UHGV virus genome: UHGV-0030196
Source: a virus
Length of the DNA stretch: 61,145 nucleotides
Direction: 5' to 3' (one strand)
In this document: piece by piece, positions 6,726 through 7,454 of the stretch
How the letters are laid out: each line of letters begins with the position of its first letter
How positions within the stretch are numbered: position 1 is the first letter of the stretch
Notes under the pieces: generated by a model
Database searches by the model: none
What the model was told of the DNA's origin: nothing
What the model saw: only the letters and a program-made list of their open reading frames with translations
Program-made: the position numbers and the translations under genes

Positions 6726-7454
6726 ATGAATACAGATTCATCAACAGAAAAATTGACTGAAAATGATCTAATCAAAGTATCTATTGGAGATGCCATAAAA
6801 GACAAGCTTTTTAATAAAGTGTTTGCATATATATTAATTTCTTTTCTAATTATTAATTGGAAAGATATACTAATATTGATGAAGTCAAAGGATGATATCC
6901 TATATACTTTATCTGTAACATTTGTTGGAGGTAAGATTCCTCTAGTTTATGAAGGCGTTTTGTCTCCTTGGTTTTATCATTTTTGCTTGCCATTTATTTT
7001 TGGAATTATTGCATCAATTGCAGCTCCGATTGTCACTCTTTGCGTATCAAAGCTAACAAGTAAAATATATACAGAGATAAGGTATTTGGATGCCGACATG
7101 GATCAAAATAAAAGAAAGGCGTTGCAAATAAAAGAGACTGAAATAATAAAAAGTATTAATGATACACAATTCAACAAAAGAATTATGGATGAAAATAAAA
7201 ATGAACTTGAGAGATTGCTTAGGCAGCAAAAAGAGATTATGGCGGCAATAAAGTTATTATATGATGATGTTGGAGTTATCATTGAGCTTTTTAAAAGTAG
7301 AGGGGTTGGTATTGACTCCCCAGAAAAGTTATATGATTTTGTAATGGCAATAAAGAAGACTTCGCTTTATAATGGCGATCATGATTTTAATAAATTGGTT
7401 GCTGATATTTCAAATTTATTTGATAAAACGGAAATTGATTTTTCAAAAAGATGA
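6726..7454 (+). CDS. AT-rich membrane protein with C-terminal coiled coil, unknown function
   Basis: Visibly AT-rich versus flanks; hydrophobic segments (YILISFLIINW, FIFGIIASIAAPIVTL); K/E-rich C-terminus. Confidence 0.6.
   Translation: MNTDSSTEKLTENDLIKVSIGDAIKDKLFNKVFAYILISFLIINWKDILILMKSKDDILYTLSVTFVGGKIPLVYEGVLSPWFYHFCLPFIFGIIASIAAPIVTLCVSKLTSKIYTEIRYLDADMDQNKRKALQIKETEIIKSINDTQFNKRIMDENKNELERLLRQQKEIMAAIKLLYDDVGVIIELFKSRGVGIDSPEKLYDFVMAIKKTSLYNGDHDFNKLVADISNLFDKTEIDFSKR

Follow-up and report, generated by a model that had tools for sequence, protein, structure and literature searches.

UHGV virus genome UHGV-0030196 was analysed as one strand of 61,145 nucleotides, the whole of which is called the window here. 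The subject of this work is a single open reading frame (ORF) at positions 6726-7454 on the + strand (D6 orf73; phrog_8191), which runs from ATG to TGA, encodes 242 amino acids (aa) and is predicted to specify a two-pass inner-membrane protein. With a GC content of 29.2%, the ORF lies about 5.5 standard deviations (SD) below the window mean (47.7%, SD 3.4%, in 729-bp windows), and in a windowed GC profile it forms the minimum of the entire 61-kb window. A first-pass annotation, made from the letters alone, had described an AT-rich gene against flanks of about 50% GC, and the profile bears this out. The ORF region is 98% identical in DNA to Escherichia phage D6, a temperate P1-family phage-plasmid, and the ORF product is 99.2% identical in amino acids to D6 orf73 (ASR76396.1), annotated as a 'hypothetical protein'. 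By sequence identity, the window is a D6-like P1-family phage-plasmid.

The genes flanking this region are tail and baseplate genes by their PHROGs assignments. On the left, on the - strand, lies a homologue of P1 tail gene 7 (5061-5894; D6 orf69, annotated as 'similar to P1 gene 7'; phrog_1906 tail protein, 1e-115), which is 95-100% identical in most D6-like loci. On the right, also on the - strand, lies a homologue of P1 tail gene 25 (7488-8681; D6 orf74; phrog_1722, 1e-196), which is 57% identical to P1 gp25 and 98-99% identical among D6-like loci. In P1, genes 25 and 7 belong to one late operon, and only 3 nt lie between them. Because the two genes are adjacent in P1, the + strand island that separates them in the window, consisting of higB, higA and the ORF, is an opposite-strand insertion into the tail operon. 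An insertion of this kind is the classical position of a moron.

The first gene of the island encodes a HigB toxin of the RelE fold (higB, 5998-6300, +; PF09907, Pfam HigB_toxin 3.3e-34), and the second encodes a 119-aa HigA antitoxin with an Xre-type helix-turn-helix (HTH) domain (higA, 6304-6663, +; Pfam HTH_3), in a short form that has no peptidase domain. A terminator-like hairpin (6667-6687, +), with an 8-bp stem containing 5 GC pairs and TATTTTC just after it, lies between higA and the ORF and marks the left boundary of the ORF cassette; its RNA fold was calculated at -19.3 kcal/mol (z -2.8). The first-pass annotation was silent on this hairpin. A second hairpin (7456-7479; -15 to -18 kcal/mol), terminator-like on both strands, lies between the ORF stop and the convergent gene 25 stop and marks the right boundary, so that the gene does sit between higBA and a convergent hairpin, as had been annotated. 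Promoter prediction gave nothing above chance in the stretch from the higA hairpin to the ATG, nor did it upstream of relatives of the ORF that stand without a toxin-antitoxin (TA) pair.

Alleles and empty states of the ORF cassette

The window was compared with six D6-like loci drawn from genomes and metagenomes. The proteins of gene 24, gene 7, HigB, HigA, gene 25, gene 26 and mat were 95-100% identical to those of the window, whereas the ORF product of the same six loci was merely 43-58% identical. In DNA alignments of the alleles, identity collapsed just 3' of the higA hairpin and recovered at the hairpin after the ORF stop. When further plasmid records were added to the six-locus comparison, at least five allele groups could be defined on D6-like backbones (window/D6, locus L002, loci L004/L005/L022, L006/L021 and L023). 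These groups are 37-57% identical pairwise, and the GC content of all alleles is about 29-34%. The sixth state is an empty slot, in which gene 25 comes immediately after higA and its hairpin; it was present in E. coli RL465 plasmid II (L020, NZ_LT906557.1 51265-53161), where the hairpin at 6667-6687 is kept, and in at least six further plasmids. In the empty-slot D6-like plasmids (L020, H50-H56), the 3' end of gene 25 also differs, being …TCAAGAACCTTTCTTCACGTACTCC vs …TTATGCTTTTTTTACATACTCC where the slot is filled.

Identity of the window's protein to the other alleles was 51-71% over aa 25-115 vs 27-57% over aa 116-242. The first-pass annotation had taken composition as a sign of separate acquisition, and the comparison agrees with this: the cassette boundaries are sharp, alleles have been replaced on backbones that are 95-100% identical, and the cassette is absent from otherwise identical elements. 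Two features by which a moron is recognised were also found, namely insertion between genes that are adjacent in P1 and a GC contrast that recurs at every related locus. The allele comparisons strongly support the view that the ORF is a separately acquired, dispensable, horizontally exchanged and compositionally foreign moron cassette.

The ratio of nonsynonymous to synonymous substitution rates (dN/dS) was 0.17-0.27 between close alleles, and this ratio of about 0.2 shows that the ORF is a functional gene under purifying selection. In one close pair (L006 6001-6741 and L021 1725-2459, 81% identical), dN/dS was 1.14 after the second membrane helix and 0.15 in the N-terminal part. For this single pair, the cytoplasmic part of the protein may have been under relaxed or diversifying selection, or may be a mosaic produced by recombination. 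Truncated copies (133-190 aa) with intact flanks were also observed (L030/L066 5001-5399; proteins P0003, P0005 and P0008); these may represent occasional decay of a dispensable gene, and some are perhaps contig-end or assembly artefacts. At L024 (IMGVR_UViG_2563366977_000001), gene 25 starts about 1.5 kb after the start of the ORF relative instead of the usual ~0.75 kb, and the slot there may hold an extra gene about 700-1540 bases downstream of the relative. Salmonella plasmids pSa1423 (H8, H9) were left out because their annotation is fragmented, probably by sequencing error.

The neighbouring TA genes follow a pattern of their own. HigB is 98-100% identical in L004-L006 and L021-L023, loci that carry different ORF alleles. 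In D6 itself (L001 5240-6367) and in many plasmids, a RelE-type toxin with its own HigA takes the place of the PF09907-type higB, and the 119-aa HigA is then either an orphan beside the ORF (in D6, where it is 98% identical) or reduced to a 65-aa remnant (L002, L003). The window joins an intact higBA pair to a D6-type ORF allele, a combination that was not seen in PLSDB at a coverage of at least 86%. By these comparisons, the TA cassette varies independently of the ORF. Adjacency to higBA is not obligatory, as both ORF relatives without a TA pair and higBA without an ORF relative occur.

Two other places in the window have a reduced GC content or carry small insertions. The second-lowest GC (~39%) lies at 29835-30220, an intergenic stretch beside a Cre-like recombinase gene (28806-29834, -), which is presumably the lox/cre control region and is unrelated to the ORF. 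The gap separating gene 26 from mat contains small + strand ORFs of 44-47 aa, at 9188-9331 in the window and as orf76/orf77 in D6; this gap is short, has 39-42% GC and may be a further small moron slot.

A two-pass membrane protein and its family

The first-pass annotation had read the ORF product as hydrophobic segments joined to a long K/E-rich coiled coil, with no recognisable motif. Kyte-Doolittle analysis identified two such segments, spanning roughly aa 31-53 and 83-110, which agrees with the first part of this description. An AlphaFold2 model based on a 40-sequence alignment reached a mean predicted local distance difference test score (pLDDT) of 83; an earlier model based on 5 sequences was poor (pLDDT 62). 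The model contains short helices at residues 12-28, 31-43, 45-53 and 58-66, a loop at 67-80 and a single continuous helix at 81-191 (~110 residues), with pLDDT of 90-98 over aa 100-180. The first transmembrane (TM) segment (TM1, 6816-6884, +; aa 31-53) corresponds to the model helices 31-43 and 45-53, with a kink at Asn44-Trp45, and is followed by a conserved KSKxD interface motif. The second (TM2, 6972-7055, +; aa 83-110) has a Kyte-Doolittle maximum of 2.3, and its Pro89, Gly93 and Pro101 are invariant or near-invariant. TM2 continues into the long helix (7056-7298, +; aa 111-191), which is predicted to be cytoplasmic and is the most allele-variable part of the protein, and a small C-terminal helical 'head' follows (7320-7427, +; aa 199-234; model helices 199-211 and 219-234).

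Lys+Arg density is 5.6 per 30 residues before TM1 and after TM2 vs 2.2 in the loop between the two helices, and the positive-inside rule gives an N-in/C-in topology in 36 of 40 family members. It is because of this pattern that the long helix and the head are placed in the cytoplasm. The description as a K/E-rich coiled coil is right in part: the long helix has good support, in the form of the model helix 81-191, but a canonical coiled coil does not. The product contains 10.7% K, 8.7% D and 5.4% E, and heptad-type 3.5-residue periodicity is modest (p ~0.015 in the ORF product; z>2 in 9 of the 40 family members). With periodicity support this modest, a canonical coiled coil was rejected and the region is termed the long helix here.

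Searches for known relatives gave little. Pfam contained no domain for the ORF, and no SieB (PF14163), holin or spanin match was found in the ORF or in 32 members of its family. When the ORF and 32-47 members were compared with Pfam, NCBIfam and PDB sequences, only coiled-coil noise was returned (SMC, Rad50), and 47 members compared with PADLOC gave scattered coiled-coil matches (LmuB, JetC), none of them in more than six members. Foldseek searches of PDB and BFVD returned nothing with E below 0.9. The top PDB fold matches were pores of two-TM K+ channels (E ~4, probability <0.1), which were not taken as evidence. No match of the ORF product to any known family was found, in sequence or in fold, and the description of a membrane anchor joined to a long helix without a known motif is upheld by the empty profile and fold searches together with the AlphaFold2 model.

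Relatives of the ORF product were found by a profile search of 1.84 billion representative proteins, which returned 57 at E<1e-3, all with the architecture of the ORF product, and 24 at E<1e-10. In length most fall within 200-290 aa, and they align over most of it. A word-indexed search with the family profile contributed hardly any further homologues. The ORF matches phrog_8191 over its full length (E 1.4e-114, residues 1-242 on profile positions 1-242 of 242), as did all 32 diverse members scanned, most of which also match phrog_13369 and phrog_4780; all three are listed as 'unknown function'. Every public name found for the family is 'hypothetical protein', with sources in Escherichia, Salmonella, Klebsiella, Enterobacter, Citrobacter and Pseudocitrobacter, and a paper on the D6-like population makes no mention of the ORF.

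Conservation within the family is concentrated in an N-terminal module (about aa 20-110) that includes IKDR/KLxNxxFxYxxxSFxxxNWxxIxILxKSKxDI. Within this module, N44 does not vary among 40-47 sequences, and conservation of W45 and S54 is 90% or more; the second hydrophobic helix carries the motif LPxxxGxxASxxxPxxT, with an invariant P89 and with conservation of 90% or more at G93 and P101. The long helix and the tail are poorly conserved, with a C-terminal scaffold (LxxxY...I....D...F) weakly conserved family-wide and an 'FVGG' loop conserved in close alleles only.

A member is carried by 72 of 5,426 complete E. coli genomes, in every case on a plasmid of ~90 kb and never on the chromosome; just 4 of these 72 genomes have the window's allele. 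Among 50,697 deposited phage genomes, a member was found in D6 only. Because D6 alone has one, the family belongs to temperate elements. The relatives recovered place the ORF product in an uncharacterised Enterobacterales family of prophages and phage-plasmids.

The slot between genes 7 and 25 also holds members in more distant P1-like lineages. In a lineage with gene 7 at 79% identity, the slot contains a TA cassette and a member; at 67% identity it contains a divergent HigBA and a member; and at 57% identity a member stands alone, directly between both tail genes. Members elsewhere are lone AT-rich genes, with GC content 0.05-0.19 below that of their surroundings. One lies between gpD and ogr of a P2-like prophage, and another lies between tail genes of a second P2-like prophage, adjoining an HNH-like gene. 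At such P2-like loci (L013 529-987, L049 5532-6278), the members stand beside small AT-rich ORFs without a family (152 aa, 97 aa) and an HNH_5-like ORF of 140 aa, with insertion at gpD-ogr or tail-baseplate junctions.

Some members have TA or defence-type genes next to them. In a ParA-carrying phage-plasmid (L014 5206-6693), a member ~17% identical to the window's protein directly follows a divergent HigB-HigA pair, and in its sister (L015 4779-6714) the member follows a DUF1778/GNAT TA pair and a HigA remnant. The order of a TA pair followed by a member recurs outside P1-like phages. In a short viral contig (L009 1744-5451), a member lies just downstream of an OLD/Gabija/PARIS-like ABC ATPase (PADLOC HEC-04, 1e-33) and a C5 cytosine methyltransferase, an arrangement that looks like a defence island. 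At L046 (551-4616), a member lies beside a 539-aa Ser/Thr kinase (34% GC; PADLOC mad6 1e-21, PD-T4-6 8e-11) and a P4-type integrase. One member is a lone Enterobacter chromosomal gene near asr and mdtJI-like genes, outside any obvious prophage.

A proposed role in exclusion or defence, and the alternatives

We tentatively propose that the ORF product is a stand-alone, moron-encoded inner-membrane exclusion or defence (abortive-infection) protein, analogous but not homologous to SieA of phage P22; we rate this proposal at slightly less than an even chance. It is consistent with the moron-type position in the tail operon, the restriction of the family to temperate elements, an allelic hypervariability like that of sieA, and the occasional defence-type neighbours.

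The comparison with P22 SieA supplies the analogy. SieA is likewise a prophage-expressed inner-membrane protein whose AT-rich gene (33.7% GC vs 47.1%) is convergent among virion genes and dispensable to the phage. Three types of sieA, ~25% identical, occupy one genomic position, and the product blocks DNA injection (PMC10883804). SieA has 162-164 aa, three predicted TM helices and the cytoplasmic motif FxRYPxEAxxFNK (PMC10883804). SieA is thus compact, with three TM helices and neither long helix nor head, whereas the ORF product has 242 aa, two TM helices and ~130 cytoplasmic residues. The RYP motif is absent from the ORF product, which does not have the sequence features that define the SieA family. 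The function of SieA has been tested by experiment, whereas that of the ORF product is predicted.

Other membrane proteins offer partial parallels. Lambda RexB and the SieB proteins of lambda and P22 are also prophage-encoded, AT-rich, inner-membrane and lysogen-expressed, and are proposed abortive-infection membrane effectors; RexB, however, has four TM helices and requires RexA, and neither RexB nor either SieB is detectably similar to the ORF product. Two-TM effector modules of defence systems, such as CBASS 2TM or SLATT-type effectors, resemble the ORF product in that two membrane helices at the N-terminus lead into a helical part in the cytoplasm, and a pattern of polar and helix-breaking TM residues common to both suggests oligomerisation or gating. 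Unlike those systems, the ORF has no cyclase, sensor or partner gene beside it, and the resemblance is architectural only. One of the 47 members matched the PADLOC '2TM effector' model (4e-4), with no consistent Pfam or PADLOC match across the family.

The ORF cassette is best explained as inserted into the late tail operon together with higBA but independently of it. If the exclusion or defence proposal is correct, the lysogen would make small amounts of the ORF product, with transcription either passing through the higA hairpin or starting at a weak promoter that belongs to the ORF, and the protein would counter invading phages or other mobile DNA at the inner membrane. Specificity would reside in the variable cytoplasmic helix and head, which would recognise an invader-specific component, and the conserved two-helix membrane module, which probably oligomerises, would be the effector. 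That effector might block DNA translocation at the inner membrane (superinfection exclusion, as with P22 SieA) or might open and depolarise the membrane (abortive infection). Asn within a membrane helix and a Pro/Gly/Pro arrangement favour helix association and flexibility. Because allelic variation is mostly cytoplasmic and the membrane module is conserved, with an invariant Asn and Pro/Gly/Pro, a sensor and membrane-effector mechanism of the abortive-infection type is slightly favoured over a pure injection block.

A more specific form of the proposal is possible, though we regard it as doubtful: the family may constitute a hitherto unrecognised single-gene system of Enterobacterales temperate elements against phages or other mobile genetic elements, in which a conserved two-helix membrane effector is linked through the long cytoplasmic helix to an exchangeable specificity 'head'. 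The alleles and the empty state would then make up a natural specificity series. In a variant of this single-gene system, the membrane protein would also serve as an infection sensor for the adjacent HigBA wherever the two co-occur.

Several results weigh against an exclusion or defence function. PADLOC-DB v2.0.0 contained no match for the ORF at E up to 1, and hhalign gave 4% for P22 SieA (over one TM helix), 1.2% for P22 SieB, 0.3% for RexB and 0.2% for lambda SieB. The lack of defence homology at any level, like the lone Enterobacter member beside asr and mdtJI-like genes, speaks instead for a lysogen-expressed membrane protein with a non-defence role, whether in lysogenic conversion, in plasmid-prophage maintenance or regulation, or in host physiology (e.g., envelope stress, membrane organisation, or interaction with a host transport or division protein). 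Many AT-rich morons serve functions outside defence. A housekeeping-type or fixed host-interaction role does not, however, predict five allele types that are 37-57% identical, together with an empty state, on a near-identical backbone, nor does a non-defence role predict that variation is concentrated in the cytoplasmic helix and head, and the family is almost wholly confined to prophages and phage-plasmids. We therefore consider a non-defence role possible but rather unlikely.

The higBA pair beside the ORF raises another alternative, that the ORF product completes a tripartite system based on HigBA, as a sensor or accessory through which infection would lead to release of the HigB RNase. HigB, HigA and a member follow one another in this order, all on one strand, in three P1-like backbone lineages and in the unrelated ParA-carrying phage-plasmid L014, whose components are deeply diverged from those of the window (HigB 22%, HigA 33% and member ~17% identical). 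In D6, L002 and L015, where the toxin has been replaced, the member still has a HigA gene or its remnant as immediate neighbour. These points are offset by loci at which the partners are parted: in L011, L012, L047 and L048 a member is the only gene separating gene 7 from gene 25, and a TA pair is absent; no TA-seed match was found in L008, L009, L010, L013, L046 and L049; and higBA occurs without a member in L020 and H50-H56. A terminator-like hairpin lies between higA and the ORF, GC content differs (29% in the ORF vs 42-45% in higBA), and ORF alleles have been swapped while HigB and HigA stay 98-100% identical.

A known three-gene system provides a precedent for such a coupling. PD-λ-2 consists of a HigB-like component A, a HigA-HTH::peptidase component B, which is the toxic component, and a P4-antitoxin-like component C (Vassallo et al. 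2022, PMC9519451). PD-λ-2C is needed for defence and not for neutralisation (PMC9519451). The window likewise has three same-strand genes, its HigB matches PADLOC PD-Lambda-2_A over the full length (1e-41), and its HigA matches PD-Lambda-2_B (7e-43), though only at profile positions 1-119 of 402. The window's HigA is without the peptidase domain that makes PD-λ-2B toxic, however, and the ORF matches neither PD-Lambda-2_C nor any other PADLOC model at E up to 1. On these two grounds PD-λ-2 membership was rejected, and for the same reasons the window's higBA is best viewed as an ordinary TA pair with an unrelated neighbour. The partial matches are a trap, in that automated defence annotation could miscall an ordinary higBA pair. 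Overall, we judge a tripartite HigBA system to be improbable.

A lytic-cycle role, as holin, antiholin, spanin-like lysis factor or accessory of the tail or of DNA ejection, is very improbable: the ORF does lie between tail genes, and a membrane anchor with a long helix is superficially like an i-spanin, but the ORF is hairpin-bounded on the strand opposite to the late operon, is absent from P1, from some D6-like elements and from all deposited phage genomes but D6, has two TM helices with a predicted N-in/C-in topology that does not fit the N-in/C-out of an i-spanin, and has no Pfam holin or spanin match.

Significance

Databases already list the sequence as a hypothetical protein, and the gene itself is not new. 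What is new is a hypervariable, present-or-absent cassette encoding an uncharacterised two-TM family at a fixed slot of P1-family phage-plasmids, with the genomic signature of an exclusion gene. The ORF is a good and cheaply testable candidate, one among many such. The locus amounts to an unusually clean natural experiment: phage-plasmids whose backbones share 95-100% identity have in this slot either nothing or one of five or more widely differing alleles, which makes phenotypes specific to an allele, and chimeras with exchanged heads, directly testable. If the exclusion or defence proposal is true, the ORF product would be a structurally distinct addition to the prophage inner-membrane exclusion and abortive-infection proteins (SieA, SieB, RexB, Imm and HK97 gp15). 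E. coli and Salmonella commonly harbour D6-like and P1-like phage-plasmids, which carry resistance genes, and for this reason the mutual exclusion of these elements, and the phage sensitivity of their hosts, are of practical interest.

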